Assembly (NCBI RefSeq): GCF_964204645.1
Contig: NC_134029.1
Span: 15,308,950-15,372,949 of the forward strand
Direction of reading: 5' to 3'
DNA: 64,000 bases
Origin: Tubulanus polymorphus
Taxonomy: Eukaryota; Animalia; Nemertea
The notes below the pieces were generated by a model. The model saw nothing but the letters and a program-made list of their open reading frames with translations. It had not been told where the DNA came from and ran no database searches. Position 1 is the stretch's first letter. The number at the start of each line of letters is the position of its first letter. Shown one piece after another: positions 14,119 through 58,983 of the stretch. The translations under genes and the position numbers were made by a program.

Positions 14119-14256
<138 letters not shown>

Positions 14257-15969: not shown

Positions 15970-15974
15970 TTTAT

Positions 15975-15992: not shown

Positions 15993-15999
15993 GTCCGTA

Positions 16000-21720: not shown

Positions 21721-21797
21721 TTCGTTTTGAACATATGAACGTTTGATTTGTCTACCGACTATGAACGTTATTTTCCCTGCTCCGCTTCTGGGGAGGA

Positions 21798-22086
21798 TGT
21801 TAAAGCCACATGCCTCGTTGACCATGGTCAGTGTCATTCACAGTCCTGACCACCGTGATCTGATTTTACAATTAGTTTGTACCTGCTGCCCTTAAGGCTT
21901 TCAGTGCCTGTCCAGTAATCCGGCACTATTTTAACAATAGAAACTTGTATGTGTAACTTAAATCTGGCTATATAAACCCTGTATACTATGTCACCTCACT
22001 TCACTATTTTGGTAGCAATACATAATGCTAGATGTACATTAAAAGTTTGATTGTTTCTTGCTGATGTTTGTTCCTGGCTTATGCTG
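21798..22086 (+). repeat. 3' LTR, truncated by ~70 bp; preceded by polypurine tract GGGGAGGA (21790-21797)
   Basis: Similarity to the 5' LTR stops near 22086; the terminal AACA is absent. Confidence 0.88.
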
Positions 22087-32910: not shown

Positions 32911-34730
32911 ACACACATATAGTACAAATCCGCATTGTGGCTCTTTGCCCAGGCTCGATGGGGCATCGATCCCCGTGAGGCCTCTGTTCACGTGGGTCTG
33001 GTTATGGGGCCACCGTATCGTGTCACCTGACGCGGTCGATCAACTTTCAGATTTGTTGGTTGAAATCTAAGTTCCATTCACTTTAAGTGGATGCATACCA
33101 AAAAGGGTCCGTTGGGTGACTAGTCGGTGGCTCGTCCCTATTACCAGGCCCCCTGGCTGCACTGAAGAGGTTTTGATCGACTAATGATCTGCAACCATTG
33201 TTGTATATCACCCTATTTAAAATCCAGTTTCTCGGTGGGTGGTTTGTATTTGCATATCAATGTCAATTGCATATAATTGTATATCCATTTACAACGGTAG
33301 GGGGTGATGGTATAAATGAATACTATAATATTGGATAAAATGGTGATATGCGAACGACGTCTTCTTTCTTTCTTTCTTTGTGTGAGTTTTGGCAGAGTAA
33401 GTGGGGTCGATTGCACCATCCAGTTCCCGTCACATGTTATTTCCCTTGCCAGCACTCTCATGTCATTTCCATCCCGTTCCTTATATAAGTGTTAGCCACA
33501 GGGAAGGTATCACTTAGGACATGACTAGTTCCTAAGTGAAAACTAGCGTCACCTACGGATACATACGAATCACGCATTTGTTTTCGAGAATCCGTGCGTG
33601 TAAAGTGGGCGAGTAATCTTGGTGGATGTTGGTTCATAGTTTGGCTAACCTTTGTCCCACCCCACCTTTACCCATCCTACTTTGTATCATGTTTTCTCTT
33701 GTGGTATCCCATCATTTTCATCCGGTAACCGGCAAGGTAAACACGACTACTAAGATTATCAGTAGTGTTTCCCATGCCTCTAAGAGACATATACCACATG
33801 CTGATGAATGTGCTATGCAGTTAAGACGGTCATATAAGATATACGGGGATAACTATTGTGTCATCATCAGCGCCATGTTCATGTGTCAGATAAACTACGC
33901 GATGTGAAAATTCCTTCAAATTTACACTAGATGATTAGCAAAAGAAAAAGATTCATTCACACTTCCATGCGCTCTCTGACACATACAAAAATTTGAAAAG
34001 TAACTTACAGCGAAATTCATAGAATTAAGGGTATTTTTACGGTAAAAATGAAAATGGTTATCACGCACGATTTAGAAATTGGGGAAAAATATATAGTTAT
34101 AAACGAGGATAAAATAAGGGGTCAAATATGTATGAATTCTGGTTTACCTATGTTATGGGTGTTGGTTGGTAGGTAGTCTGCTAGAATTTTGATAAAATGC
34201 GGCACAAAATTTAGTGGTAATACTTACAGGGTTGTCTTGCATGATGAAGCAAGTAGAATTGATGCGCGGAGTTCAGGCCGGTAAGCTACGAATGGATGAT
34301 TAATGTGTTAACTTCTGCGTGTATTCCCGGTTTATTCCCGATCAATTGACCCATTAAAATACCCATATGCTAGTACACTATAGATAAGATTACGATATTT
34401 GCAGACATAAACTGATAGTCTGAAGATAGTCAAACACTGAAACTACTTTCGAATGCAGCAAGAAACGTTAATAAATCCCTACCGTCCAACCGTCTTTACC
34501 GTAGCAAATGAAATATGATCGAATTGGTCTAAAATCTTTTGATACTGTCGTTTTCAGGTTTTTTATTCTGTATAATATCTGATGTTCTACACTGATACGA
34601 CTATTGGTTCTGACTGTACTATACCTGGTGGTAGTGCTTGCCCACATGGTTTATAGATACACGGAAACATAGGAAAATGGTATTATATAAATTATCTTTC
34701 GTGTCATTAATTGACATAATGTGATTGTAG

Positions 34731-34856
34731 ATATAGATGAATGCTCGGAAAATCCTCGTCTTTGCCTCAATGGACACTGTCAAAATACAGAAGGGTCATT
34801 TCAGTGTGACTGTAAGACTGGCTACAAGTTTAATCCTGTGACTAAGATGTGTGACG
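34731..34856 (+). CDS. FBN: Fibrillin exon: calcium-binding EGF domain
   Basis: attgtag|..|gtaagg, 126 bp. (D)IDECSENPRLCLNGHCQNTEGSFQCDCKTGYKFNPVTKMCD. Confidence 0.93.
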
Positions 34857-34946
34857 GTAAGGATTTTAAACGGAAACAGTAAATTCAGTACAATCATTGT
34901 GCATTACTTTCTGTCTATAATTCACTTCCTTATCTATATGCAACAG

Positions 34947-35081
34947 ATATAATAGAATGCAGTAGTAATCCAGAGAGGAATCCCTGTCTGAATGGACGCT
35001 GCCAAAACACTCCTGGGTCTTATGTATGTAAATGCGATAGGCCTGGTGAGATTTTGGATCCATCCGGTAAATTATGTATCG
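34947..35081 (+). CDS. FBN: Fibrillin exon: cbEGF-type domain
   Basis: gcaacag|..|gtaagt, 135 bp. (D)IIECSSNPERNPCLNGRCQNTPGSYVCKCDRPGEILDPSGKLCI. Confidence 0.92.
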
Positions 35082-35157
35082 GTAAGTGATGTCAAATTGT
35101 TGTCTCATGCACCACCAAACACACAACTTGTTAATTCATTTTTGTCCTTGTTTACAG

Positions 35158-35319
35158 ATCAACGAAGATCAACCTGCTGGTCCAGGGTCAATAAGGGATC
35201 GAACACTTTACGGCCGGTGTGTGAAGGTGCATTGCATACTTCTATGACTAAGTCCGACTGTTGTGCTACTCTAGGTACTGCCTGGGGAAGTCCATGCGCA
35301 GAATGTCCAGAAAATATAG
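35158..35319 (+). CDS. FBN: Fibrillin exon: hybrid domain (Hyb2) N-terminal part
   Basis: tttacag|..|gtatgt, 162 bp. (D)QRRSTCWSRVNKGSNTLRPVCEGALHTSMTKSDCCATLGTAWGSPCAECPENI matches the fibrillin Hyb2 pattern TCW..CE..KS.CC..LG.AWGSPC..C. Confidence 0.92.
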
Positions 35320-38433: not shown

Positions 38434-38527
38434 AGTGAGTAATTGGGAAAGTAGGCTTTCATACTAGAGGTCGAGCGGTCGAGACACCACTCATCACCAC
38501 AAGTAATTTTTTTTCCTAATAAATGGG
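38434..38527 (+). repeat. Left TIR of Polinton B
   Basis: AGTGAGTAATTGGGAAAGTAGGCTTTCATACTAGAGGTCGAGCGGTCGAGACACCACTCATCACCACAAGTAATTTTTTTTCCTAATAAATGGG; inverted match to 53963-54056. Confidence 0.9.
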
Positions 38528-38850
38528 AGATAGAAAAGCATTCTTAGCAACAATTTTAATAACAGAATTAAACCAGCAAAAAAACAATTTGAAATAAAAA
38601 AGTTACTTGATGTTACAAAAGAAATTGAACATAAAATATTGAAATTAGAAAAGATAAAAACTAAATATGGAGAGAAAGTATCAGCGAATTTAAGCTACTG
38701 TAATGTTAGTACATCGCGAGAATTTAAAGTATTTTTACCTGATAAATGGGTTTCATTGAGTACAGAGGAATTAAAAGATTTAGAAGGATTTAAAATAATC
38801 TACCATGGGAAAATGAAGACGGTCATCATGATTTAGAAATTGTTGATTAA
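38523..38850 (+). pseudogene. Small terminal Polinton protein (~105 aa, possibly OB-fold ssDNA-binding), frameshifted
   Basis: MGDRKAFL..KILKLEKIKTKYGEKVSANL..FKVFLPDKW..FKIIYHGKNEDGHHDLEIVD; present in all three copies. The fold assignment is inference only. Confidence 0.6.
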
Positions 38851-38891
38851 ATAAAAAATAAAAATAATGAATATCTAGAATCCAAAATGAC

Positions 38892-39751
38892 CTTACTCGT
38901 TTTACAAACAACTACAATCATACAGTCAAACATCTGTTACATGTTATTATAAGAGAGTGCTTCATTTGAATATTGATCGATCAAACAGGTGTTGCAATTC
39001 AACGTTGTTGTTATAGCAGTTATATAATAAGCACGCAGTACAAACAACACACACAGGACAGGAGGATACATTCTCTCTCGTGATTAAAAGGAATATTTCA
39101 ATGTTTTTACGGTAAGTTTTAGCAAAACCACCCGACTTGACTCGCAGAGTTTTTAGGGGATAAGCATCCCGTTATTGAGAGGCGCCACGAGATACCTATC
39201 CCCAAGCATTTCTACTTACACCCCTGTGACCCACACCTCGCCAATTCTCCTTCAATGGTTGACAGGAAACACATTATATTAAAGGCGCCTAATGCATTTC
39301 CTATCACCCCCTTACCCCCGAAAGGAGGATCGAAAGTCGAAACTGAAGGAGAACCACGGAGGGTGGACAAAGGTGCATTTTAGAAATGCCCCTGCAAGCC
39401 AAGCCCGGCGGCACTCCAGTGGTCGAATGAATTGCCTTATATACTTAGCTAAAACACCTAAGTAAATGTTGCTGGTGCTAAAAAATGTGAAATTTGAAAT
39501 TATAAATTATTCCGAATGAAAAGAATATAAGAATTAAAACTGATAAATGATTTATTGATTTTTAACTTAATTATGATATAATTTTTAATCAAATTAGTAA
39601 TCAATTACCATGTTAATTGATTAACAAATTCAAATTCAAATTCAAATATTCATTTTAGCATCACACCCAGTGCTGCCATCTTTCAATTTAAGAAAAAGCT
39701 AATAATAAGAAACGACTGTAATACAATATTCGAGTAAAAACAAAATAAATT
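38892..39751. other. ~860-bp non-Polinton insertion flanked by a 35-bp direct repeat
   Basis: AATAAAAATAATGAATATCTAGAATCC(A/G)AAATGAC at 38857-38891 and 39752-39786. The insert is absent from copies A and C. Confidence 0.75.
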
Positions 39752-40158
39752 AATAAAAATAATGAATATCTAGAATCCGAAATGACTTATCTGGACAATT
39801 TAATTGCTCCGCATAGATAGACAAAAGTAGTGAGATATTCAATTATTTTTTTTGCTTTTTTTCTAAAATATTAATCCATTTTTTTTATTGTCAATTTTGG
39901 AATTTCAGAAGTATTTTCATTTTTGATAGCAGTTGTTTCAGAATTATAAATATCATGAATTTTATTTGATTTCTTATACCAATTACACCCAATCAAAATG
40001 AATACAATTACAAATCCAACTGTAAAATATAGACTTTTATCAAATATTCTATTATTAGAAGGAGTAGAAATAACAATATTTTTACCATTTTTATTACTTA
40101 TTTTTTCTTTTACAGCTTTTTTATATTCTTGTATTTAATTCCTAATTGCCGAGACCAT

Positions 40159-40765
40159 TCAATTTGTTTCTGAGTTCTCGGGTTTTTCTTCACAGTTAAT
40201 TCCTTCACTTCTTCCACCTCGCTCATTTATTATAGAAATATTTTTACTTTCAATATTTGAAAATGTTATAACCCCAGTTGATAATAATGTCATAAATCCG
40301 CCTAATTGAAATGATAAATATCCAATCCATTTATCTAATTCAGTCATAACTAAATAATCATTTTTTAAATCGGAATATAATTTATTTTCATCTTCAATTG
40401 GTAATATATAATTACATAATTTACTATAACCTTTAACTACATTTTCTGATAACGCGCTATTAATTCTAGCTGTTCTCGCGGCTTCATAAATCTTAAATAA
40501 TCTAATAATTTCATCTGATTTCATTGTATCTAATTCATTATAAGTTAAATTTTTACCGATAAAATTTTTTACATTTTCCAGATGCTATTAATATTTCTAA
40601 TTGATGTTTACAATAAAGATAATATTCATAATTATTATTTGTTGTAACATTATTTAAAGCACCATCATCTGGAGTTAATTTTGTTTCTGTTATTCCTAAA
40701 TCATCTAAAGTTTTTTCAATTGGAACATCACCATTTTTAGATTTTATTTTCTTTTCACCTACCAT
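40159..40765 (-). pseudogene. Conserved Polinton hypothetical protein (~200 aa, one frameshift) with hydrophobic C-terminus
   Basis: ORFs 40553-40765 and 40159-40524 join via one frameshift. Homologues are present in copies A (9820-10415) and C (37900-38325). Confidence 0.7.
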
Positions 40766-40794
40766 TTATATAACAAAAAAATTATTTGTGATGT

Positions 40795-41058
40795 TGCAAC
40801 TTGAATGTAACTAGAATTCAACTAGATTAACAAGCTAGTTGAAATATTGTTGTTTTTGTTTATTTCTTGTTAAATCTAGTTGATTTTTGTTCCAACTACT
40901 AACAACTAGAATTCAACTAGAATGTAACTAGAATTAAACTAGATTAGCAAACTAGTTAAAATATTGTTAAATCTAGTTGATTTTTGTTCCAACTACCAAT
41001 AACTAGAATTCAACTAGAATGTAACTAGAATTCAACTAGATTAACAAGCTAGTTGAAT
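40795..41058. repeat. Intergenic AACTAG-based tandem/palindromic array (copy B)
   Basis: 11-bp units AACTAGAATTC/AACTAGAATGT nested in ~100-bp higher-order repeats, with CAACTAG..CTAGTTG inversions. Confidence 0.85.
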
Positions 41059-41640
41059 TTAAATAAATTCATATTTAAATGGGTGTTGTAATCTAAATAG
41101 TAATTTTGATCATTTAATATTTTTCAACTTATCCATAGATTCATTATGTAAATCATGTGGAATAATATCATTTTCCTCAAGTGCATTTTTCATCGATTTT
41201 CTGTCTTTATTGTAGAATAAAACTAGAAATCTAATGTTTTCTCTAAAGTCTTTAACAATTGAATTATATTTTTGATTTAAAACCCAAGTTGTTATCCCAA
41301 AATGTCTCCCAGAGAAAGCTAAATAACATTACTCACTTTCTCTAACTTTTAAAATCATGTAAATTTGCGCTATCATCTACAATGAATAATGTATTTGATC
41401 CTTTATAAATATCAATTGCTATTTTTATACAATTATCTAAATTTTCTTTTACTGTTTTAGGATCTAATATAATAAATTTATTATTTCTAGTAATATTTCT
41501 GTCATAAGTTTGATTAAATTCATATGTTGGACAAAATATTATCAAAATAGTTTTCATAAACAGTTTCTAATAAATTTAATATAAAATAAGTTTTTCCACA
41601 ATTTGTTACGCCAGAAATTAACATATAATGAGGCTCAAAT
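41059..41640 (-). pseudogene. A32-like (FtsK/HerA) genome-packaging ATPase, disrupted
   Basis: Walker A MLISGVTNCGKTY (41590-41625), IFCPT, Walker B LFIVDD, arginine-finger region FSGRHFGITTWVLNQKY..FRENI. Confidence 0.9.
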
Positions 41641-42593
41641 ATAAAAATACCCATCAACTTCTTCACCATTTAAATCTTCTAATTTATAGACATATGGTTT
41701 TGTTGTTATTACCTTTTTTATTTTATATATTTCTCTAGTAAAATTTCGATCGTATCCTTTGTCAAATATCTTTTTATACTTAGAAATTCTAACATTTTGA
41801 CCAACTTTAAATTTAGGTTCACCAAAATCATCTACAAGAAATGCTCCATATAAATTATTCCAAACAATTTCAGCATTTTCAGGTTTTCTAGCATTAATAG
41901 GTTTCATTCCAATAGAAGAATGATAAGAATTATTATATCCTTCTATCAATTTTGGTAAAACATCAATCCATTTAAAAGTATTATTTGCTGTAAAATATTT
42001 CCACATTCTTGTTCTTAATGTTCTATTAAATCGTTCAACAACTGCTGCTTTTTTATACGATTTTGTTGAAAAATGTTATGATTGTCCAAGAGTTCATGAA
42101 CAAGTGAATTATCAAACTCTTTTCCATCATCAAATTGTATTTTTTCTGGTTTTAGTTTATCATCCGAAAGAAATTTTCTTAAAAAATTTGATGTTTGTAC
42201 AGCCTCTTTTCTATCAAGTGGGAAACTCCATACATAACGACTAAAAATATCAATTATATTCAATATCCACCAATAATCATCATTATCTTTCTTAACATTT
42301 TTCATATCAATTAAATCTCCTTGCCACTGTTGATCTACATAACTTACCATAGTTTTACGAGTTTTATATTTTCTAACAATTTTTTTATGTGTTGTGTATG
42401 TTGGTTGTTCTAACATAAATTCATTTATATCTTTATATTTAACTAAATTTTGTGGGATTATCTTATCTAATTTATCTTGTTTTACTTGACGCCATATATT
42501 TTTGGTAGAAGAATAAGCAACCGAACTCTCAGGGTTGTAATATAAATTTCTTAAATATTGTTCTTTAGTATTAGGAGTTCTTTTACCGCCCAT
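41635..42593 (-). pseudogene. Polinton retroviral-like (rve) integrase, one frameshift
   Basis: LRNLYYNP, QPTYTTHK, QWQGDLIDM, IIDIFSRY, IQFDDGKEF, KAAVVERFNRTL, YNNSYHSSIGMKP, KFKVGQNVRISK, EEVDGYFY. Confidence 0.93.
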
Positions 42594-42623
42594 TTATATA
42601 TCGTTAATTTTAACTTTATATTT

Positions 42624-43825
42624 CTAATATTGAATACTATCTAATTGTGAATTTACAATATTTAATTGTGCGTCAGATATAATATAAATGTGCATTTTGA
42701 AATTTTTGTCTCCTCTTTTCTTCGCCATGAATGATTGTATTTCATCTTTAGTGTTCTGTAGTTTTTTCCCAGAACCATGTAATGAATTATCCTCTGTTGT
42801 TCTAAAATCTAACCATAATGCATATTTATTGCCGGTATAATAATCAATTTGATTAATATTACAATTTTCAAATGATTTTACTTTTTCATTCATAAAATGT
42901 TTTCTAATTTCTGGCCACTGATCTATCATTCTCATTCCTTGGCAAAATATTTTATTTGCTATTCCTTCGATAGTTATTTCTACTTTTGTTATTTCAGGAT
43001 TATAATACCTTATAATTATCTACCTTTATTGCACCATTAGAATATGTTGCAATGTTGTAAAAAATATTAATATACCTTTAATAGATCTTCTTGGGAAGTT
43101 AATATTCTCATTAATTATTTCATCATTTCCATTAATAGTTACAGTTTTAAATATTATCAATATAATCATATAATAATGAAAATCCTTGATTGTATTGAGT
43201 TTGAATTGTGCTAGCAATATTTTCATTAGTTGCTGTGTCATATTCTAAACATATATTCGATAATTTATAACCCATATCTTTAACAACGCTAGATAATACA
43301 ATTTCATTTACAGGAGCAAATGTTATCTCAAATATAATATCTTCTTGAATTGCGTATTTACATAAAGGTGCATTATTATTTATCAATTCAAAGTCTAATG
43401 GAATTTTATATTTGCTTCCATAAATCTTTTAAATCAAATTATCTGTGGCACGAGTTACTATTGCGTCATTAGCTCCTGATCCTAATTTATTATGGTTTTC
43501 TGATTAGATGCCTTGAAATATCATATTATTTCTATTTTCTTTAGTTAACCATAAATCTTTATAATGCATAAATAAATTATAATCATCAAATGAGAAAACT
43601 GTTTCTGGACCAATCTTTATAGTTAATTTTTTAATCAAATATCTCCCAACATTATCGACAACATAATTATTATCATGACCAGTTACTTTTATATCGGCTG
43701 ATAAATAAATACTATTTGGAACATAAAAAGTATTTTGTGTTAATCTAGGAATTCTAACATATAAAGTTTCATCGGGATTAATATTTGAAGGATTATGAGT
43801 AATTATATGATGTGATCTTTCTGCT
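42624..43825 (-). pseudogene. Probable double-jelly-roll major capsid protein, multiply frameshifted, start apparently missing
   Basis: About 400 codons of beta-rich sequence: HHIITHNPSNINPDETLYVRIPRL..DNVGRYLIKKLTIKIG..YKDLWL..YKIPLDFEL..FEITFAP..YKLSNICLEYD..ENINFPRRSIKGILIFF..YNPEITKVEITIEG..YALWLDFRT..HGSG. The call rests on size, position and pattern; no profile search was run. Confidence 0.7.
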
Positions 43826-45224
43826 TTACTAGCCCAAAAATAATAGCACTTACAACTGTAATTAAAAATAAAATAATATATTCAGCAGCAAAGTTAAGAA
43901 TATTACCTGCAGATTTCAATATAAAACCAACAATTGATGCAATACTTCCTGGTAAAGCTGCAGCAGATTTTTTAGATAGTTCCCATAAATATTTTGCTAA
44001 TTTCTTTAAACCATCTTTAACTTTATCTTGTATGGAATTATTATCATTCGGGGGTTTATCCGGTTTATTTGGAGTAGGAGTAGATTTTAAAGCATTTGAT
44101 ATTGCTAAACCTATTGTTGTAAATAACATAGTTACAGCTGTTAGAATTGAAAGAATTGTTATTCCTTCTAATTTAAATAATAATCTTATTCTATCTTTTA
44201 ATGATATTTTAGAATCTGGTTTTATCAACAAATCTTTAAAAATAACTTTTAATCTATTAATATTATAATCATATGATTTTAATAATAATTTAATTTCTTC
44301 TTTTTGTAATTCTAAATTATCTTTTAAATTATTAATTTCTTTTTCTAAACGTAATTCTTTTTGTCTATATTCCATTTCATCAATTACTTGACGATCAGGA
44401 TCAGACTTTAATTGTTCTATCTCTTTATTTTTATCAGTTAATTCTTTTTCTAAATTTTTAATTTTAATATCTCTTATACTTTTATCATGTGCAATTTTAT
44501 CAGATGCAAGTCTTATACTTTTAATATCTCTAATTGCTTCAACAGAAAATATATTATTTAAATCTTCTAATTCTTGATCTGTTGCATCAATTAATTCATT
44601 CGGTAAAAGTTTTTCAATTAGAACTTTATTTGATTTAAGTTTACTAGTTTTGGAAGTTATATTCTGTTCAGAAGTTGTTTCTGTTTCTGATTTCTTTTTG
44701 ATTATTTCAAATAATTCATTAATTCTTTGTTTAAATACGTCTATATCATTATCAGTTAATTCTTGTTTTATAACATCAGTTATTACATTACTATTACTAA
44801 TTCTTTTAATTCTATCTGGAGGATTTAAATCAATCAAAGTTGATTTTGCTAATATTTTGTTTTCACGCTTATAAGTGATATCAATATAATAATCACCTTT
44901 CAAATGATAATACCATTTACCATTATCTAAAAATTTTAATTTATCTGCCAAAGATCCAACGGCTTCATTTTCAATTATACGTTTTAATTTAGGTATTTTG
45001 TTTAAATTATTTAAATCTTTTTTTACTAAATCTGGGTCTAAATTTTCAGGATTTAATTGTGATTCTGCATTTTTAATATAATCAGGCAGATTTAAATTAT
45101 TATTATATTCTGGCTCATTACCATCATTATAACTTGTTTCACTGAAATCAGGTTGTTGTTCATCAGTTATACCAGGTTCATCTAAAGGATCCATTCCAAT
45201 ATCTTCTCCACCTTCTACATCCAT
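43803..45224 (-). CDS. 473-aa Polinton protein: acidic N-terminus, coiled coil, C-terminal hydrophobic/amphipathic helices
   Basis: Open ORF with heptad-rich middle, then EGITILSILTAVTMLFTTIGLAI and AAALPGSIASIVGFILKSAGNILNFAAEYIILFLITVVSAIIFGLV. Confidence 0.75.
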   Translation of the reverse strand: MDVEGGEDIGMDPLDEPGITDEQQPDFSETSYNDGNEPEYNNNLNLPDYIKNAESQLNPENLDPDLVKKDLNNLNKIPKLKRIIENEAVGSLADKLKFLDNGKWYYHLKGDYYIDITYKRENKILAKSTLIDLNPPDRIKRISNSNVITDVIKQELTDNDIDVFKQRINELFEIIKKKSETETTSEQNITSKTSKLKSNKVLIEKLLPNELIDATDQELEDLNNIFSVEAIRDIKSIRLASDKIAHDKSIRDIKIKNLEKELTDKNKEIEQLKSDPDRQVIDEMEYRQKELRLEKEINNLKDNLELQKEEIKLLLKSYDYNINRLKVIFKDLLIKPDSKISLKDRIRLLFKLEGITILSILTAVTMLFTTIGLAISNALKSTPTPNKPDKPPNDNNSIQDKVKDGLKKLAKYLWELSKKSAAALPGSIASIVGFILKSAGNILNFAAEYIILFLITVVSAIIFGLVKQKDHII

Positions 45225-45241
45225 TTATATAATTAAAAAAA

Positions 45242-46594
45242 TTAAAATTTAAAATATAATATTCCTCCTATAACAATTCCTATACAAGTTAAAGCTAATT
45301 TAGTATTTTCATGGAATTTATTATCATTATCAGTTTTAATTATATCATGTTGAATATTATCAGTTTTTATATTTTCTGATGTATTGTAATCTTTTATTTT
45401 AGAATCATTATTTAATTGAATATTATTAGTTTTAGTTTCTGTTGATTGAATATGTTTTTTATTTTTTTCACCTTCCATTAATTTTGGAGCAGTAATAATC
45501 TTTTTATTTATATCATTTAATCCAAATGAATTATTCATTGTTGCAGTTTTAATTAGATTATTATAACCGAATATATTTCCCATCTTTAGTACTAAATCAT
45601 TTGAAATAATTAATAGATTAGGTCCTATACAATAATTTAATCTAATATGTGATTTATCTAAATAATTTTGATATCTTACAATGTTTTCTGGAATCGATCT
45701 ATTTTTATCATTATGAATTGAATCTTCAAATAATACTTTAAACTGTTTCTGCGCATCGAATGAAGTGTTATCATTTCCAACTATTGGTGATCTTGTTTCA
45801 ACTTGCGCACCTAAAATACATATCAAATAAGTTCTAATAGATTGATTTATTCTTTGTATACCAGCTTTAGTAAAACCTTCGCTATTTTCTAAAATGAAAT
45901 TAACCCAACCATTATTATTTTGTTGTTGTATATTATTATAATATTTTGGTAATTCATTCCAATTAAGTGTTCTTATATCTGAATTTGTCATTATTTTTCC
46001 AAATTCTTTAGTATATAATATTCCTAATCCACCCATTGTTCCAATTTTTGCTCTAAAATCTTTATTTGAATTAATATTAAATTCATTACATATTTTATAA
46101 AACTTAGAAAAATTAATATTATTATTCAATTCAATTTTACTCCTCTTTAAATTGATTCAATTAAAATATTTTGAACCTGGTAAAGGACATTCTAATTCAT
46201 CTGATATTAATTTTATTTGAAAATAAGTATGAAATCTAAAAAGTGATAACATCAATGGTAAACTTGGTTTGTTTAAATGATCATTCCAACTTATTCCGCA
46301 TCCTGTTGTTGCGCAATAAACAGCAAAATTTAATTGGTTCTGCCAATACTTCATATTAGATTTTAATAACCATTGTTTTGCCTCATTTAAATTTTTTAAA
46401 TTAATTGTATACACATGAAATATATTTTCCATCTTTACATGAAAATTATTACTTTCAGTAACATAAATATATAAATCAATTAATGAATTTAAAACTTCAT
46501 TTCTATATGTAATATCTTTATTAAAATATTTTGCAGGAATATTATATTTAATTGATTTATTATATTGGAAAGCTTTTGGAAAACTATCTGCCAT
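45242..46594 (-). pseudogene. ~450-aa Polinton protein with C-terminal TM anchor, split by a frameshift near 46150
   Basis: ORFs 46157-46594 (YWQNQLNFAVYCATTGCGIS) and 45242-46129 (GFTKAGIQRINQSIRTYLICILGAQVETRSPIVG..LALTCIGIVIGGILYFKF). There is no separate start signal between them. Confidence 0.65.
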
Positions 46595-46610
46595 TTATAT
46601 AATTAAAAAA

Positions 46611-47036
46611 TTAATAATTTACGAATTCTTTTAATAATTTATCTTGTTCTTCAACTGTTATATGGCCATTTAAACTTATTATATAATCTAGTGTATTCTT
46701 AAATTTATTAATTTCTTTTATATTAGTTTTAATTTTTTCTTTATTACTTTTTATATTTAATTTTGAACTTATACCGGTTAAAACACTTAAACTTAATCCT
46801 AATACGCCAATTGATATAGCTAAAGGTGTTAATGGGCTGAATATTGCTAGAAATGTTATTACAGAACTAATTGTAACCGAACCACTTATAATCAAATAAT
46901 ATATAATTTTACTTTTTAAATATTTTTTCTTTTTAACTTTTAAATCACTTTCAAATTCTAATATTTGTTTCTCTAAATATATTTTTAATTTAGTTTTATT
47001 TATATCATGAGGAATAATATCAATATTATCATCCAT
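46611..47036 (-). CDS. 141-aa protein with two TM helices between coiled-coil segments
   Basis: Intact ORF; IIYYLIISGSVTISSVITFLAIFSPLTPLAISIGVLGLSLSVLTGI. Confidence 0.7.
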   Translation of the reverse strand: MDDNIDIIPHDINKTKLKIYLEKQILEFESDLKVKKKKYLKSKIIYYLIISGSVTISSVITFLAIFSPLTPLAISIGVLGLSLSVLTGISSKLNIKSNKEKIKTNIKEINKFKNTLDYIISLNGHITVEEQDKLLKEFVNY

Positions 47037-47054
47037 TTATTTAGCAAAAAATTA

Positions 47055-47477
47055 CTAATTAGTAAACTTATAAGCAACAAATATAACAATAACTGTTCCG
47101 CCTAAAATCCATATTATTTCATATTTCTGTTGTTCTTTACTCGGGGTATAATAATCTGATAATTTAGGTTTGTATAGATGTAATTTTTCTTTATTGGTTA
47201 CCGCGTTATATAAACTCATTGCATCATCAACTGATTGAAAATCTCTATGTGAAATCTTCTGATCATATAATCCTTTGTTAATATAATCCATATAGTTTTG
47301 TCTTTTTTCTCTATATTCTTCTGCTGCTGTATTATATTTCTCTAATGCTAAGTTATGTCTTTTTTGTTCTGTTAATGAACCATTTTTATCAATATGTTTA
47401 AATAAATACCCACCACCAGTAAATGCTAAAGCGTTAACAATTGCCGATCCTATAACAGTTATAACTGCAGAAGCCAT
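47055..47477 (-). CDS. 140-aa protein with hydrophobic N- and C-termini
   Basis: Intact ORF MASAVITVIGSAIVNALAFTGGGYLF..EQKRHNLALEKY..IIWILGGTVIVIFVAYKF, with a TAAATG start. Confidence 0.75.
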   Translation of the reverse strand: MASAVITVIGSAIVNALAFTGGGYLFKHIDKNGSLTEQKRHNLALEKYNTAAEEYREKRQNYMDYINKGLYDQKISHRDFQSVDDAMSLYNAVTNKEKLHLYKPKLSDYYTPSKEQQKYEIIWILGGTVIVIFVAYKFTN

Positions 47478-47501
47478 TTATTTAGTAAAATAATTATGTA
47501 T

Positions 47502-47723
47502 TTATATGGGAGGAATATATTTTTGTTTTTCTAAATAATCAATAGTTAAATTAGATAAAGTAACTGCTAATGTTAATTTTAAAATATCATTTATATCAAA
47601 TCTATCAACATTAACACTTCCCATTTTGAATAATTTTTTTAATACCATTGAATAACCAACAGTTCCAACTGATAGTAATGCTCCATTATATAATCCAGTT
47701 ATTATCCACTTATTATCACTCAT
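47502..47723 (-). CDS. 73-aa hydrophobic/membrane protein
   Basis: Intact ORF with two hydrophobic segments, tightly packed between its neighbours. Confidence 0.65.
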   Translation of the reverse strand: MSDNKWIITGLYNGALLSVGTVGYSMVLKKLFKMGSVNVDRFDINDILKLTLAVTLSNLTIDYLEKQKYIPPI

Positions 47724-47739
47724 TCATTTATCAAAAAAA

Positions 47740-48065
47740 TTACTATCTTCAAAATATTTAGTTAACTTATTTATGATTAAATCAACATTTATTTCATTAC
47801 TAGTTTCATTTGTGTATATTTATAACCCTGGTTTTAAAAATAGATGAAATCATTTATTTTTATTTCCAATATGAATTAAAAATTCTCTATGTTCAAAAGT
47901 TTTAGCCGTTATATTATGAAAAGAATTACATAAACTTATATTAACTAATTTTAAATCAACACAATTCTTAAATTCTCTATCTAATTGAACTTGTAAATTA
48001 TGTGATTTATAATTTGTAAGTTTTCTAGAATCAACAAATATTCTGTATTCTTTTAATTCTACCAT
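47740..48065 (-). pseudogene. Possible minor capsid (penton-like single jelly-roll) protein, N-terminal remnant
   Basis: IFVDSRK..HNLQVQLDREFKNCVDLKLVNISLCNSFHNI..LKPGL resembles the IDSR..L..KNV..L..NS.YNI..PG.Y start of PLV/NCLDV minor capsid proteins. Truncated. Confidence 0.5.
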
Positions 48066-48136
48066 TATTTATAACATAAAAAATTACCGCTCATCACTAA
48101 AAATTAATTTTAATAAAATTTTTCCTTAATATATCG

Positions 48137-49462
48137 ATGAGAAGATACCATTTGAAATTTGTGGTGAACTTCTAAGAAAAAGTAATATGGCTCGACATAT
48201 GAAAAAACATGGTGAAAATTATAAACCCCCTAAAATAAACTGCCCAAAATGTAATAAAATATTCTCAAGAAATTATGATAAATAACATTCAGAGAAGTGT
48301 AAAATTAATGGCGCAACGGCTAATGTTGATAGTAACGAAAGTAATAGTAATTCTGTTGAAGTTGAACCTGAAATTATTTGGAAAAGACCTTTCTTATTCT
48401 ATGACAAGGATAATATAAAAGATCATATCTGCGAGCCTTGTCGAATGAAATTTAGTCCTGAAAATATAGAAGATTGGGAGAATCATCAATTTCGAAAAAT
48501 ACATATAGATAAAATTTCTAATAAATTTGAAGCAGAATTCAATGAAAGAAAAAATAGTTCATTAGAAAAAATAAAATATGAGAAAAACGTTACAAGATAA
48601 TAAAGAAACAGTTGAAAAGTTAGAAAAACAATATAATGAATTAACAAGAAAAACATATTATTGTAAATATTGTAAATTGATTATTACAACAAGTAATTCA
48701 AATCTACATAATAGAACAATAAAACATAAAGAAAACGTAAGAAAATACCAGGAGCTTAATGAAGATCTATTACCAATAAATTATAAACAAAAATGCACAC
48801 AATGTAATTATGCGACCTTAAGGAAAGAAGGTACTGTGTTATTTTGTAATGAATGCGGATGGCAAAAGACTTTATGGGGTGAAGAAAAAACTAGAGATTT
48901 TCTCATAGAACCAAAATTAAATTATCTAGATGAAATTTTTAAAATATTTTCTATAGAATATCATACACCAGAATATAAGCAATGGCTTGAAAAAATGAAA
49001 ATAATAGAAAATGAAAATGGTGAAATAACTAAAAAAGATATTATAAAAACAATTATTCCATCAACATTTAACACAAAAGAAAAGAAAATGTATTTATATT
49101 TATTATTTAACGATTATTATGAAAAACCTTAATTAACAGAAGAAGATATGGAAAATATAAAAAAAACATTCAAACAAATATTAATGTATCATTTGGAAAA
49201 TAGAATAACAGATTCAATTAATTATGAATTCTTTTTAAATGAGATTTTAAATTATTTAAACATCGATATTATAATTCCATTTGAAGCATTAACAAACAAA
49301 AAGAAACAAAGAGCGCTATATGAAATGTGGTACAAGATAGAACTTTATTTAAATGAGAAAAATGAAATGGAAGAACCTAAACAAATTATACAAGAACGAT
49401 TAAATGAAAATGAAGAAGCCAATAGTGATTTCGAGTATGACGATACTGATTTTATGTTTTAA
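48137..49462 (+). pseudogene. Multi-C2H2 zinc-finger protein fused to a VLTF3-like (poxvirus A2) late transcription factor domain
   Basis: Zinc fingers EICG..RHMKKH, CPKC, CEPC..H..H and CKYC..HNRTIKH. Zinc ribbon CTQC..LFCNECG. ORFs 48578-49132 and 49148-49462 are in frame across one TAA: KP*LTEEDMENIKKTFKQI..INYEFFLNEILNYL..LTNKKKQRALYEMWYKI. Confidence 0.6.
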
Positions 49463-52400
49463 TGGCCATAAGGTAATGTTTTTATACCATCATCTAAAAT
49501 ATGCCTTTTATCATCAAATGGATTCAAACTAGTTTTTTCAACTTCATTAATGTACATCTCGTGATCTTCTGATCTTAAACAATTCGTTTTGTGTTTCATT
49601 ACAATTGAGTTATATAAACACTTTATATAATCTTGAAATTCTATATGTTTATCAACCACATGTTTTGTTATTCCTTTTAACTTTTTAGCTTCATGATCTT
49701 TTGTTCTGTAACTATACATTTTACTTCTTATCCCAACAAATTCAATCATTTCATCACCCCCTAATTCATCTCTAAACATACCAGGAATCTTTTTATTATC
49801 ATTGCTAAATAGTTCATGATCTTTGGGATAATTGCTAAAATCAAAATGATGTTTTAATGTTTTTAAGTCTTTTGTTATGTCATTTGTCTTGATTTTTAGT
49901 ATGTACGCATCAGTATTTTTTTGCAATTAATGGAAATCCACAGTTAAATGTACCATCTTCAGTTGATAAATCATAAACATAATCTGATGGGTTATATATT
50001 TCAAATAAATCTTTAACTTCTTCTGTTAATTCTTTTTCTACATGCCTTAAATTAAAACAATTTGGTTTAGATTTAATTAATTCTATATTCATATTAAATC
50101 CTAATTAACTGCATAATATACTTAATCCTGATGTAGCAACTTTTCATTTCTGTGCAAAGGTTATCTTTTTATTCTTCGTAAATTTTTTAGTGCCATCTGC
50201 GGGATAGAATCCAATGAAGAACTATTTTCTTAAATTATTTTTTGCATTTAATACATAATCTGGTACTATTTTTTCTTTAGTTGAAGTATTACTTTTCACT
50301 ATTGCATGAATATAGAATTCGTCATTATATTTTATAGCAAAATCTTTAGGATTATTCACATGTATTCTATAACATTGCGATGATTTCATAACATCTATGA
50401 TTTTAAATGTTTTATGTGAATAAACTTCTGCACAGAATTTCTTTATTCTTTCTAATAATTTCAAATCTTGATTGCATAAATACCAGCAATTTTGAGTGCG
50501 ATTAACATAATTATACACACCTGCTGAACCATCTCCCATAAAAAATCCTTTGATAAAATATTCTTTTTCTTCTAATGTTTCAGGTTCTATATTATAAATA
50601 TTATCAATTATTTCATCAAATGACATATGATTCATTCTTTGGAAAAATCTTTTATGTAATAATTCATCTCCAATTTATATAAATACAATAATTTTACCAT
50701 AAAAACTATTATTCATTAATTTGAAGAAATCTTTTTCAAAATCTTTTTTTTGATATGGTTCTCTGTTGAGTATTGAAATCTATATATTTTTCTCACCACT
50801 TCCATTGATTAAATTCAATATATCTATGTACTTTCTTTAATTTCATTCCTTGTTTTAGATAAGATTTTAACATTCTATAATGAACAATATAATTGTATTT
50901 ATTATTTTGAGTAAGTATTAATTTTTCTGTAAAAACATGTTCCTTCGGTTTTATTTTCTTCTGGTATTCACTTAAATAACTATCATCTACGGTTAAATGT
51001 GCTTGGCAATAAGGTAAGTTTCTTGTTTTAAACTTTATATTTTCAGGATATTCTAAATCAACTACAAAGAAATAACCAATTGGTGCTTCATCTTTTAAAC
51101 TCGCAATTGCGCTTTCCCAATCAGTTTTATCATCATTTTCAACTTCTGTTAATATAAAATTTTTATACGGTTGAGGTTGCATCATTGCCCAACCATATAA
51201 ATTATTGGCGTCAATATATAATAATTTATATTCATCATTTGCTTTAAAATACCTATCTCCCATAACACCACTAATTCCACCTCTAATTGATTTTTCAAAT
51301 AATAAAACCATGTCTGGTTCTTTTAATAATTCTAATTCTACATTTGTATATTTTAAACCACATTGCCAGGTTAAACTAGGACTAGAGTAGCAATAACAAG
51401 GATCAACATTAAAATGATTCAAATTAACTTCTCTAAATTTTTCAAATATGTCAGCCAATATCATAACATCTGATTTTAAATATAAATCAACTAATTCACC
51501 ATGATTTTTCATCTTAAAATGGTTCCAAATATTTAATGTTCTATTAAACAATTCGTCTTTCGCATACTCCTCTTTAAATTGATCATAAAATTGATCTTTT
51601 AATGATTCTGTTACATTAAAATCATTGTGTGTTTTTTAAAATGAATAAGGAATTGCACCTTTATATCTCAATAATTTAAGATCTTGTTCATTTGGATAAT
51701 AATATCGTGTGATAACAAAATCATTATCAACTAAACTTTTTGATAAATTATCTAATGAACTTGCTAGAAATCTATAAGAATCTAAAAATCTAATGCAACC
51801 AAATTGAAATGAAATATAATTTTCAGATGTTTTAGCTAATAGTTTAAAATCATGTTTTCTTAAATTTACACCATTCATAACATTATATTCTTCTATTTCT
51901 TGATTAATTGTGCCCAATTTCCTTGATAATTGTTTTATAAATAGATGGGTATCATAGCCTGATAAATTATGGAATAATATTGGTACGAAATTAACTTTCT
52001 TAGCTTGTAAATTGCAATCTTCATGAGCAGCTCCACGATATTTAGAATTTAAATGATCATGATCTCTAACTTTTTTATCAAATGAATAAAAACGTTTTTC
52101 ACAATAACAACAATGAGTTGCATAATTAAAATCGATTTCATCTTCTTCTGTCATAACTATTCTTTTATTTTTGTTTAATAATTTTGCAAAATCACTTTCT
52201 AATTCAATCATTTTGTCACAAAAATCATTAACTACATCTTCACCTCTAAAAGAAATATATTGACTTTCATATAATTCGGGATAATTTGATTTGATGTAAA
52301 TTCCATAGGCAGCAGCTCTTTGATGAACTTTTTTAATTGTATTTATAATTGGCGGGTCTTGTGTTGTGTCTTCATTTAATTCATTTCCTTTATCCATTGA

Positions 52401-53967
52401 TCTTAATAATTGCTTTTTGTTATATATTTCTTTTCTATCTTGTTCAGTTAATTCTTTATTCAACGATTCAAAATCCCCATAAATTACAAATGGAACAATA
52501 TTCTTAAATTTATGATTAGTAAATTTCAATTTATAATCTTTTTCTGTTGGCATTATTAATTTACAAAAATCTTTATTATCACATAATTCTTTATGTTTTA
52601 CTAACGCATTCTCAGTTCTTAATTTAGATAAACATTTTCTACATAGATAAATTTTATTATGGTGATCACTTTCTGTTCTAAAGAATAAATCAATTTGTTT
52701 TAACCACATATAATGTTCATTTTCATCTTTTTTGTAATATAACAAATCTATAGCATTTTCATCATCATAATATTCTGTTAAATATAAAGCTTCCAATGTA
52801 TAATCTTTAATATTTTCATCTTTTGTCTTTGGTAATTGCATTAATGCGAATACATTTATTTTTAAATTATTAACTTTTTCTATTTAAGAAATCATTTTTA
52901 TAGTTACTGGATATTGATCAATTTTATATAATGTTTCATATTTCCGGTAATTTGTTATTCTAAAACTATGTGTAATATCTTCTGTTGGATGTAAGCAACT
53001 AATAATTGCCCACAGAAAACATTTATTATCTTAATTTTGAACATTTATTACTGCTTTTGTTGTAAATGGTAATTTAATATAAGATGATCCTTTAATATCC
53101 TCCTTTTCTGTTGTAAAGTTTGAATCATTTTTAAACATTTTATTACTTTTTGATGTTTTATTTCTTTTTGTATTATAAACATTTAAATCTAAAAATATAA
53201 TTTCATTCAATGTTAAGCCAGAACCCTCAAAATATCTTTCTTCAATATGACGTTTAAATTCATTAAATATTTTTTCTAACTCCTCTTTTATTTGTGTTTT
53301 TGAAATTATTTCTTCAGAGAGTGTTTGAATATTATAATCCATCTTATCTTCTGACTTTAAAAAACTTACTTTCCCAGAGATACTAATTTTTGGATATTCA
53401 ACATCTGTTATCAAATCTAGTATTTTTTCTATTATTTCATTAAATTTACTATAATCTTCCATTGTTGTACCTTTAAAAAATCTAAATATAATAGCTGCAG
53501 GACCAATTTTACTACGTAATGTTTCTAATATTTCAATTGTATCTTTTATTTCTAGTGAATCAATATAATTTCTAACATTTTCCATGTAAGGTTTATTTGA
53601 AATGGATTTAGTTTTTGAAGTTGGTTTTTTTACTTTTTGAGGTTTATCATCGAAATAATCTTTTCCTAAAACATTATTACTCAAATGTGATGGTGTTTTT
53701 GTGATTCGAGATGTCTATTATAATTCCATTTTGTTATAAATTCATCACAAACTTCACATTTTATTTCATCCACATTCATATCATCTAATCGTTCTTTTCT
53801 TTCATTTGTATTATCTAGTGTTTCAAAATCTATTACATTTTTTATATGATTTGCAGTTTTTTCATATCGTGATATTTGGGATTTATCGATGTATTTTTTA
53901 CAATATTGGCAATAAAATTGATTTTTATTAACATTATTATTTTCTGGCTGGTGTTCATTACCCCCAT
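49459..53967 (-). pseudogene. polB: Protein-primed family B DNA polymerase with N-terminal C2H2 fingers, endonuclease VII-like insert and an intein remnant
   Basis: EGSGLTLNEI, GSSYIKLP, VINVQN*DNKCFLW, YGDFES, CCYC..VRDHDH..YRGAAHEDCNL, FHNLSGYD, RFLDSYRFL, KGAIPY, YLKSDV..LADIFE, RGGIS, YIDANNLYGWAM, FFKLMNNSFYGK, TDAYI, KKIPGMFRDE, FVGIRSKMYS, KKLKGI, LNPFDDKR, TLPYGH. Confidence 0.95.
49915..50674 (-). mobile_element. Intein with LAGLIDADG (DOD) homing endonuclease in pPolB; N-terminal splicing region deleted, several stops
   Basis: One reading frame gives IGDELLH..FIKGFFMGDGS (block C)..VPDYVLNA (D)..FFIGFYPADG (E)..GLSILCS*LGF (H)..YVYDLSTEDGTFNCG (F). Removing one A from an A7 run gives LIAKN|TDA (block G Asn, then Thr +1 of the polymerase DTD motif). 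Confidence 0.88.
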
Positions 53968-54056
53968 TTATTAGGAAAAAAAAATTACTTGTGGTTATGA
54001 GTGGTGTCTCGACCTTCGACCTCTGGTATGAAACAACACATTTCCTATTACTTACT
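53963..54056 (-). repeat. Right TIR of Polinton B
   Basis: Reverse complement AGTAAGTAATAGGAAATGTGTTGTTTCATACCAGAGGTCGAAGGTCGAGACACCACTCATAACCACAAGTAATTTT..CCTAATAAATGGG. Confidence 0.9.
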
Positions 54057-55208: not shown

Positions 55209-57849
55209 CGGTTCCTGAACTTCGCTGAAAAAGCTGAAACACTGAAAAGCTGAAACGCTGAAATAAAAACGCTGAAATTTCAGGGAATTTCCGAAAAACG
55301 CCGAAATTTCAGGGAATTCCCGAAAAACGCTGAAATCGTGCAAGGTACCGACAATACACGTTTTGAAATTCTTTCCGGGCCGGTGTCCGCTGCCGAGTCC
55401 TGAACCGTCTTTTAGACTCTATCTTCGGTTACAGAGACATGCCTTGAGGTCGTCGTCAAGTTCGACTTGATCGATTGCGGATTGCGTGGATTGTTAGATG
55501 TTTTTTGTTTTATGCGCATATACCGGTACGATCTAACAATGAAATTATCACTTCATTTGAATAAATTCTTAATTACAGTAATATTAATTCTCAATATTTT
55601 TTCTTATATTTGGTGATTTCTTCCAACTTATCATTGCCAAGTCTCATACAAAAGTAGTAGCTGAATGAAAGTACAGCTAGTAAGGCTGAACCTGATAACC
55701 CAAATTAAGTGCTATCATGGAACTTATGACTACTTTGATTCTATTTTGGTGTGAATAAAGGTTCAACCGTCATAGTATACTGTACTTAGCATTACTACGA
55801 TTGGGTGCCATATTTCTACAATCTCTTCAAGGAAGGAGTCGTGGAGTGTCTTTCGTTCCCGGGTAGGCATCCTCGCTTGCTAGGAGACCAGTATCGCTCC
55901 CAAACTCGCTTCCACCTGCCCCCTGGCCTCACGACGCGCGATTTCATTACCGGCGTTTTAGCGAATGACGTCATATATCAACACGCGACAATACTTCCGT
56001 TTTCGCTGATTGGTCCATTTACCGGGAAATTCCATAGATGCCAAATGTCGTTTGTAACAAGCGCTGTGATTGGCCCGACCTGATTCTGGTCGGCTAGTAA
56101 CGACTCGAGGTCAAGCGGTTCGGAGAACAGCTTTAGTGTAGTGGGTTCGAATCCCTTGACAGGTGAAGATGCCGGGTAGGGTACGGGGTAAAACCTGGTT
56201 TACTTTCTCTGTCTACTTGCTGGAGACTACTATCTGCAATGTATTGCAAGTTTTTATTTGTCTGGCTTATGAGAGTCGAACAACGTTTTCCCATACACAG
56301 GCTTGGCTTTAGTACTAGATGAAGGCTAGGCACTGCACATTGTGGATTGACTGGAACTCTAAACTCACAAAATTAAACGAGTCAACAAGAAAGATCCAAT
56401 AATTTGACGTTTGTCTAATTATATTATTTAACAGCTTAAAATAATACTTAACACATTGTAAGAATACACAAAAGAAATCAGTTCTTACATTATATCAGAA
56501 TCAATAGTTCGCTTAACTCGGGCTTGAATTCTGGTTCCATTGCTTTATATTCTAATGAAATTCACTAGCATACCTTAGAATATTGCTTAGCTTAAGATAA
56601 AAAATTTGGTACCAGGAAAACGGGGAAGTAAAGTGGGTGTACTGTACATCCCCAATTGACTTATTTCTCTCTGGTTGAATCAAGTTATTACTGAAATAGC
56701 ATTCGAATAGCCATTTTGTTTTTAAAAATTGTGTCGTTCAGCTATCCTGCTGCAAATTTCGCAGTTCAAGTTAACTAGTGCCATCTGATTTCTCAGTATC
56801 TCAAATTTGCACATTCTTAGCCCGAGTCTAAAAATAGAAAAAAAGTGCATTTAAAGTAGGAAATAAAAGAATAGTGGCTAACACACTCTGGAGATATAGC
56901 CTATGGGGTGGGCCTAGTTTGAAAGCGCTGAGGTCCGAGGGAACAGCACTTAGTAAATAAATACTGAAATCAAACTTACAAAACACCCAATACTTGAGAT
57001 GATGTACTTGACAAGAAGTGTGTCCAGCTGAGCAAATCAACTTTATCTATGACTCCTCCTTTTATAGATACCGTAGTAGTCTAAAAATAAGAATCGGTAC
57101 ATTTTTCTAACAGTCGGTATGTCATTTAAAAAAAAAAAACCTATTAACACAGCAAATAAATTACAGTTGTTGAATGGTTTGCCCGATTTAGATTAATTGG
57201 TTGACGCTAATTAGTATGACCTATAAGTAGGGGCCTACTGCATGTCATTGGCGTCAATCCATTCCATTCCACGGTGAATTAAAAAGAAATTTAGTTAGAT
57301 CCCTTTTGTCCAAAAGCTGCATCATTTATATAACTAGCTGTCAAATTTAATTTACCTCCTTCAGAGAATACCATAGTCCATCGCCCATCAACGTGTTGAC
57401 AAAAGAAAAGTTGCTTATAATCCTGTTTTATACATGAACGATAGAAGTAAACCATATTCTTGGAATATTGAGCATAGTGTTTAAGTTGGCTTGCACGGTT
57501 TGTGAATGGGTTTTCCTCATCATGCTGCCTGTATGCATTAAAAATCCGGATTTCAAGCGAATTAATTTGTTCAACAAGTGGCCCTCTAGAAGTATACTCC
57601 ACACATACTGCCCATGCATGTCTCTGTAACCGAAGGTGGAGACTAAAAGACGGTTCAGGACTCGGCAGCGAATACCGGCCCGGAAATTATTTCAAAACGT
57701 GTATTGTCGGTACCTAGCACGATTTCAGCGTTTTTCGGGAATTCCCTGAAATTTCGGCGTTTTTCGGAAATTCCTTGAAATTTCAGCGTTTTTTTTTCAG
57801 CGATTCAGCGTTTCAGTGTTTCAGCTTTTTCAGCGAAGTTCAGGAACCG
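55209..57849. mobile_element. Non-autonomous Mutator-like (MULE) DNA transposon, ~235-bp TIRs, 10-bp TSD
   Basis: CGGTTCCTGAACTTCGCTGAAA.. (55209-55442) is inverted at 57616-57849. Perfect TSD TATTCCCTAC at 55199-55208 and 57850-57859. TIRs contain GCTGAAA sub-repeats. The superfamily call is inferred from TSD and TIR length. Confidence 0.85.
56100..56200 (+). mobile_element. Possible tRNA-derived SINE head inside the MULE
   Basis: B-box GGTTCGAATCC at ~56144, preceded by a weak A-box-like GGTCAAGCGG. No complete cloverleaf. Confidence 0.3.
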
Positions 57850-58774: not shown

Positions 58775-58857
58775 GTGAGTAATTATTAATTCCCTATGGA
58801 CAGAAGATCATGCATCTAAGGTAAATATTGAAACATTTTTCATTCTCAACGTTTCAG

Positions 58858-58983
58858 ACATAAATGAGTGCAATTTATACCCGGAAGCGTGTAAAGACGG
58901 CCGATGTGTAAACAATATAGGGTCCTTTTTATGCCAGTGTCCTCCGGGATTCAGACTTGATGCATCAGGCACCAAATGCAAAG
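58858..58983 (+). CDS. FBN: Fibrillin exon: calcium-binding EGF domain (cbEGF10-equivalent)
   Basis: gtttcag|..|gtaaaa, 126 bp. (D)INECNLYPEACKDGRCVNNIGSFLCQCPPGFRLDASGTKCK. Confidence 0.93.

Follow-up and report, generated by a model that had tools for sequence, protein, structure and literature searches.

A decayed LAGLIDADG intein in the DNA polymerase of a nemertean Polinton and its intact relatives

The question raised by this locus is whether a self-splicing intein has entered the chromosomes of an animal. The locus lies in a 64,000-nucleotide stretch of contig NC_134029.1 of the nemertean Tubulanus polymorphus (positions 15,308,950 to 15,372,949), which as a whole is hereafter called the window and which carries a Polinton, an integrating element whose DNA polymerase, of family B, is protein-primed (pPolB). 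A preliminary description of the window had stated that self-splicing inteins are essentially unknown from animal nuclear genes. The surveys agree, as far as the parts of the cited papers available to us go: eukaryotic inteins are located in fungi, algae, protists and giant viruses and not in animals (PMC5784728, PMC7765530, PMC10710043), no animals being listed for the 257 inteins of 231 eukaryotes (PMC5784728) and inteins being described as mainly confined to prokaryotes and unicellular eukaryotes (PMC7765530).

In this study we confirmed that positions 49915-50674 of the window are what is left of a LAGLIDADG intein that occupies the catalytic YxD/TD site of the Polinton pPolB (the slash marks the junction). 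We are highly confident of the wider interpretation as well, namely that a decayed intein of this kind resides in an animal chromosome and that its intact relatives likely splice and likely home into intein-free sister Polintons. The lineage is apparently undescribed: its chemistry and allele site are known, and the polymerase class and the genomic home are new.

Anatomy of the intein remnant and its copies in the host species

As had been described from the sequence alone, two LAGLIDADG motifs, a block D-like segment and block F lie between polymerase motif B and the polymerase C-terminus, and all intein motifs were found to share a single minus-strand frame of 252 codons (50674-49919). The frame breaks within the A7 run at 49916-49922, where the adjacent frame reads N-T-D-A-Y-I-L, giving the proposed terminal Asn and Thr+1, and continues into the polymerase C-terminus. 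On the other side, motif B (KLMNNSFYGK) ends at 50693 and is followed by six codons, the last of which is a stop, before the intein frame begins. In comparison with the related polymerases P0002 and P0351, 92 polymerase and 103 intein residues are absent, including the first intein residue (Ser1) and block B, and ~12-18 nt occupy the place of the deleted ~195 codons; the loss of the intein N-terminus and about 100 polymerase residues had thus been recognised correctly. In addition, we detected three in-frame stops in the intein segment (50222-50224, 50144-50146 and 50105-50107) that the preliminary description had not mentioned. With three stops, the frame break and the deletion, this copy is dead, as had been claimed, and is incapable of splicing or homing.

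When the stops were read as X, the intein segment matched Pfam LAGLIDADG_3 with 27.2 bits (cut-off 22.5), and no Pfam Hint profile matched it, as is to be expected of a segment that lacks the N-terminal half of the intein. Weak matches were obtained with the PI-PkoII/TkoII intein (E 0.017) and, in an NCBIfam search, with an intein-bearing model. The best intact relative was the pPolB-borne intein of P0002 (60% identical, E 2.8e-89, with 99% of its length covered), and since the LAGLIDADG_3 match also exceeds the cut-off, the segment does not represent a chance similarity. The polymerase pieces of the window alone gave no match to the PolB profile and were assigned via P0002, which has PF03175.

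A contig of sequencing run X1 was identical to the window over 1572 nt around the downstream calcium-binding EGF exon of the host gene, and therefore the reads come from the species of the window. In the raw reads of run X6, of which 12% were sampled in five intein, nine extein and six single-copy bins, the mean depths were 196 for the intein, 369 for the exteins and 2.6 for the single-copy bins. This corresponds to ~76 and ~143 copy-equivalents of intein and exteins, respectively, as rough values, given thresholds of 85 vs 95%, a thin baseline and related families that inflate the extein depth, and suggests ~75 intein-bearing copies among ~140 Polinton copies in the host species. Run X5 (share 0.05) was left out of account. 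Three contigs of run X1 depart from the window sequence at 50681 and one contig of run X2 at 50694; thus, other copies continue differently at both edges of the deletion. Moreover, at many of the positions listed the window disagrees with almost every read, which indicates private decay of the window copy.

The multiple copies in the raw reads also bear on the suggestion, raised at the outset, that the segment could be an endonuclease gene standing by itself or a chimera of the assembly, the latter considered here as one with giant-virus DNA. We regard this as scarcely credible and largely refuted. The N-terminal junction is lost in the window copy, no read or contig listed crosses it, and none of the read pieces listed spans the deletion junction; however, the C-terminal junction is exact, the relatives are in-frame fusions, the intein occurs at ~76-fold single-copy depth, and the GC content is equal in intein and extein (0.246 vs 0.245).

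Intact relatives and intein-free alleles

A protein search with the window segment gave 10 matches among 1008 candidates: three were pPolBs (60, 44 and 48% identity), and the other seven, at 29-39%, were giant-virus-type PolBs of the RNA-primed kind. Searches with the intein of P0002 gave 570 and 140 matches, of which the best 120 of each were listed. The closest relative was P0172, a fragment matching at 71% over 160 residues; it ends K-N/T-D-A as well. Intact pPolB proteins with an intein were P0002, P0039, P0051, P0054 and P0055, and partial ones were found too; the intein occupies residues 1184-1537 of P0002 and 1042-1387 of P0039. A motif search of 304 proteins delimited 212 full-length inteins (193 in RNA-primed PolBs, 16 in pPolBs and three unclassified), all with Ser first and Thr after the end, and five further pPolB inteins were delimited separately.

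Among 16 dereplicated full-length pPolB inteins, Ser1, both LAGLIDADG Asp residues, the block F Asp and the terminal Asn were present in all (16/16 each), the block B TxxH motif in 15/16, and Thr+1 in 15, P0158 having Ala+1. Block A follows YxD directly and in frame in the intact pPolB copies, as had been predicted. Penultimate Lys in place of the usual His, which had been put forward as a peculiarity of the window copy, was ruled out as a special feature, being ordinary in the family (88/193 giant-virus relatives and 3/16 pPolB inteins). Intact relatives matched both Hint and LAGLIDADG profiles, in line with expectation: Pfam Intein_splicing (PF14890) was above cut-off in P0003 and P0039 and below it in six other pPolB inteins, and a Hint domain was already marked on P0002 and P0039 in automatic Pfam tables. 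An AlphaFold model of P0163 (78 rows; predicted local distance difference test 93.7, predicted template modelling score 0.92) was predicted to fold like the TliVMA and PI-TkoII inteins; its top Foldseek matches were all endonuclease-bearing inteins (7qsu with E 7e-18, 2cw7, 1dq3 and PI-SceI), and I-DmoI fold matches were also found. The family thus combines class-1 intein residues and a Hint domain with the pol-c allele site and two acidic LAGLIDADG motifs, from which its activities are predicted.

Many copies are located on long ENA contigs, which suggests that the relatives reside in eukaryotic chromosomes. P0164 lies on a 2.5-kb contig in a bin assigned to a Thiodiazotropha symbiont of the clam Ctena, and this contig probably represents host carry-over into the symbiont bin. 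No related loci were found when the window segment was searched against viral contigs or P0002 against metagenome contigs; an alignment search of the viral contigs recovered one distant phage intein, and pattern and alignment searches of prokaryote genomes gave no match. A DNA pattern of the shared C-terminus identified 57 loci (42 metagenome and 15 viral, some on the same contigs), of which 56 were in RNA-primed PolBs and one in a pPolB (L035).

Some of the polymerases retrieved were unusual in other respects. P0009, a giant-virus-type PolB, carries a related intein at the motif B site, a non-allelic position, its motif C site being empty. P0390, P0410 and P0417 contain two related inteins ~50-200 residues apart, and in P0005, also of giant-virus type, a dihydrofolate reductase domain (PF00186, E 9e-60) separates the exonuclease and polymerase parts.

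Filled and intein-free alleles, for which a search had been recommended, were both found. P0021 equals P0018 minus precisely the 339-residue intein, the exteins being identical in 571/577 and 169/169 residues, and a precise intein-free allele of P0039 was found in P0286. In the P0039 cluster (136 members, contigs up to 1 Mb), 13 of the 15 members listed span the site, seven filled and six empty. The upstream exteins of filled and empty alleles were ~99% identical (95% in one). In the six empty alleles, 8-9/20 residues differed within 10 residues of the site, upstream differences amounting to 2-8/500 in five of them and 23/500 in the sixth. Such site-centred differences fit either co-conversion in the course of homing or selection in favour of sites that resist cutting. 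In two other clusters all site-spanning members listed were filled (4/4 and 3/3). A 50%-cluster search returned mostly intein-free pPolBs, and the intein profile matched four of the 149 new rows, three of them of giant-virus type. Two empty alleles, P0282 and P0284, have D-C-D instead of D-T-D at motif C and possibly escape cutting.

Endonuclease domains inside Polinton polymerases are known from the HNH and VSR inserts of pPolB (PMC10748475), and the occurrence of such fixed inserts could suggest that the present insert is likewise a domesticated, non-splicing Hint/nuclease domain. We consider this very improbable: the insert splits the catalytic D-T-D, all splicing residues are kept, and precise empty alleles are known. 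For the HNH and VSR inserts the available parts of that paper describe neither a Hint domain nor a splice junction, whereas here a complete Hint and LAGLIDADG intein interrupts the active site.

Descent of the intein and its possible homing

In a FastTree analysis of 139 rows, all 18 pPolB inteins, including that of the window, formed one clade (support 1.0); near-duplicates were excluded from the intein trees, 72 of the 193 RNA-primed PolB inteins being dropped from this one by dereplication. In the IQ-TREE analysis the clade (13 of 52 rows) had a support of 100 in the Shimodaira-Hasegawa-like approximate likelihood ratio test, and its sister group (support 92) consisted of 15 giant-virus-type inteins, including that of Mimiviridae sp. 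ChoanoV1. When the tree was rooted with phage inteins, the pPolB clade was nested among giant-virus inteins (31-row branch, 97). In the pPolB extein tree of 166 cores, from which six rows without an extein core, including P0051 and P0004, were omitted, filled alleles were confined to one 34-tip subclade (0.998) and interleaved with empty ones. P0051 is a pPolB with a strong PF03175 match whose exteins hardly align with P0002, although the inteins are 46-48% identical and that of P0051 was placed beside the P0002/window branch. This points to a second jump, into what the Pfam score suggests to be the other pPolB class of PMC8502044.

We propose that an intact element would produce a precursor of 1,500-1,700 residues that would undergo class-1 splicing (acyl shift at Ser1, attack by Thr+1 and cyclisation of Asn), the sole way in which the D-T-D active site would be restored. 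Because the insert splits D-T-D, an active polymerase would need splicing, and this requirement in the intact element would explain why the splicing residues are conserved. The freed endonuclease would then cut the motif-C DNA of empty copies, with dozens of Polinton copies per nucleus as targets, and repair would copy the intein in. The conserved nuclease residues, the coexisting empty alleles and the site-centred differences together suggest such homing among copies. Historically, a single entry from a giant virus would have been followed by divergence of the intein together with one pPolB subclade, through repeated loss and re-invasion, and by one further jump into the other pPolB class. 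As to whether a giant-virus intein indeed colonised pPolB, jumped between its classes and is now a living homing gene drive in several animal germlines, the first such family in animal chromosomes, we are evenly balanced between acceptance and doubt.

Several observations weigh against these proposals. Splicing and homing of the intact relatives are predicted from their sequences and from established intein biology; the only copy placed in an animal chromosome is the dead one of the window; and the evidence from the host species consists of reads that map to the surviving part of the intein and leave at the edges of the deletion. Thus, of the earlier idea of germline entry followed by homing among Polintons, the presence of this copy in an animal chromosome stands, and homing in the germline would be a prediction. 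The Polinton ends lack a 6-bp target-site duplication, their flanks being different, and the P0051 case comprises one protein on one 5.3-kb contig.

The direction of transfer is affected as well. The approximately unbiased test did not reject (p 0.324) a tree that keeps all giant-virus inteins together in a single clade, separate from those of pPolB, the three long-branch phage outgroups failed to group together, which makes the outgroup rooting weak, and the sister-group support decreased to 82 in the phage-rooted tree. The insecure root and this test result would be compatible with transfer in the reverse direction or with an unsampled third source for both lineages. We consider this quite improbable, since the pPolB clade is compact, is surrounded by hundreds of diverse giant-virus-type inteins, falls inside them in the rooted tree, and is limited to one pPolB subclade plus one stray. 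The transfer from RNA-primed to protein-primed PolB that had been proposed earlier therefore fits the intein and extein trees, and the virus-to-Polinton direction is favoured but not statistically secured.

Furthermore, the intein tree and the extein tree branch in largely the same way within the main subclade, a pattern that vertical inheritance accompanied by loss explains too. The intein could accordingly be real and splicing and yet a passenger of the Polinton lineage, its homing being past or restricted to free viral stages and the empty alleles reflecting precise loss or co-resident lineages. In the P0039 cluster, moreover, the intein differs slightly more than the exteins (5-14/346 vs 7-17/1191), unlike what a very recent sweep would leave. 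However, both acidic residues of the endonuclease are kept in 16/16 intact inteins, two separate clusters each contain filled and empty alleles whose exteins are ~99% identical, one of them with site-clustered differences, and P0051 requires a jump between Polinton classes. The passenger explanation therefore appears unlikely to us, though less so than a reversed transfer, and homing among Polinton copies is the interpretation we prefer.

The intein shares its pol-c site with the Mimivirus PolB intein, as had been pointed out, and resembles the Mimivirus-type pol-c inteins (PMC549080) in the YxD/TD site, in Ser1, Asn and Thr+1, in the two LAGLIDADG motifs and in its length of ~340-350 residues; the Mimivirus intein (P0106) is 39% identical to that of P0002. 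Unlike in the archaeal and giant-virus pol-c inteins, the host here is the protein-primed PolB of an integrating element that is multi-copy in animal chromosomes, and the pPolB site has drifted (YMD, YSD, ASD). The intein-bearing viral-like polymerases that Klebsormidium, Tetrabaena and a labyrinthulid have on nuclear scaffolds (PMC10710043) are similar in that an intein enters a eukaryotic nucleus within an endogenous virus polymerase, but their hosts are algae and protists and not animals; Polinton, Maverick, animal and metazoa are not mentioned in the available text and two supplements of that paper. The Hint domain of animal Hedgehog proteins likewise represents a Hint fold in an animal genome, but it autoprocesses without extein ligation and has no homing endonuclease (PMC7765530). 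In the available literature, including parts of PMC12220804 and PMC3671162, no Hint-containing intein is described in a Polinton or protein-primed PolB, although subscription journals, Repbase, InBase and most supplements may mention one; the term 'intein' occurs 0 times in the available parts of PMC10748475, PMC8502044, PMC11131425 and PMC7544198.

One sentence in the accessible part of PMC11161782 proposes that the endonuclease inserts of pPolB derive from intein invasions, and the present family would provide a concrete case for this conjecture. Through it, inteins would also gain access to animal chromosomes, and homing would take place in an unusual setting, with tens of filled and empty targets per nucleus instead of two alleles. 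A jump from RNA-primed to protein-primed PolB, followed by one between pPolB classes, would represent intein movement across very distant homologues and would imply that giant viruses and Polintons were once in the same cell. Since natural intact inteins are known together with empty alleles that match them, both splicing and cleavage of the target can be tested directly in vitro.

The Polinton element and its surroundings

The features of the locus are collected in Table 1. The Polinton is flanked on both sides by plus-strand exons encoding TB and calcium-binding EGF domains, an architecture that marks animal fibrillin-type genes, and therefore the element is within an intron of a fibrillin-type animal gene. 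The copy is old, and its left end is abutted by a partial third copy. Its integrase and its probable capsid and ATPase genes are all broken, and no protease gene was recognised in it. The putative packaging ATPase (41110..41669) gave no match in a Pfam search.

Table 1. Coordinates of the intein remnant, the Polinton and the host exons in the window
Feature	Position	Strand	Remarks
LAGLIDADG intein, C-terminal ~70%, pseudogenised	49915..50674	-	Comprises blocks C, D, E, H of the endonuclease, F and G of Hint, and the end of the N-terminal Hint half
LAGLIDADG motif 1 (block C), FIKGFFMGDGS	50525..50557	-	Acidic residue retained
Block D-like segment, KEKIVPDYVLNA	50243..50278	-	
LAGLIDADG motif 2 (block E), FFIGFYPADG	50192..50221	-	Acidic residue retained; in-frame stop immediately ahead
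Block F (VYD motif), YVYDLSTEDGTF	49946..49981	-	NCGFPLIAK comes next
Intein C-terminal junction	49909..49922	-	Frame break in the A7 run; includes terminal Asn, Thr+1 and the catalytic Asp that belongs to polymerase motif C
Deletion junction	50675..50693	-	~92 polymerase and ~103 intein codons gone
pPolB C-extein	49459..49914	-	tblastn 59% to P0002 residues 1537-1689
pPolB N-extein, fragmented, with motifs A and B	50693..53714	-	Stops and frame breaks; 51% to P0002 602-1083
Polinton element, 15.6 kb	38434-54056		Bounded by inverted repeats, AG...CT ends
Left terminal inverted repeat	38434..38527		Begins AG; 95 nt, 86% to right arm
Right terminal inverted repeat	53963..54056		Ends CT; pairs with left arm, 86%
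Probable packaging ATPase, three pieces	41110..41669	-	Walker A, Walker B and GRH-like motifs by eye
Retrovirus-like integrase, two frames	41635..42593	-	Pfam rve 8e-11
Probable major capsid protein, fragmented	42624..43881	-	Pfam Capsid_N E 0.002, under cut-off
Upstream host exons of fibrillin type, with calcium-binding EGF and TB domains	34727..35318	+	Pfam EGF_CA 1.7e-12, TB 1.4e-10
Downstream host exon with calcium-binding EGF domain	58854..58976	+	Single-copy; Pfam EGF_CA 1.9e-12

Positions ~8885-15615 of the window hold a second copy from this Polinton family, which is 84-91% identical and carries an internal deletion. The part corresponding to ~41500-50759 of the main copy is absent, and with it the whole stretch that would bear the site, so that the second copy counts neither as filled nor as empty; it is interrupted by a reverse-transcriptase fragment resembling long interspersed nuclear elements (~11960-13040) and a (TA)n run. 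The third copy, a more diverged partial copy of the left end of the element (75-79%), lies directly upstream of it at 36987-38324. The same host gene also contains a BEL/Pao-like long terminal repeat retrotransposon (15615-22055) with 258-nt direct repeats at 96%. In addition, two non-autonomous-looking DNA transposons were found in the window, one at 55209-57849 with inverted repeats of 234 nt at 95% and the other at 24245-26436 with inverted repeats of 497 nt at 96%.
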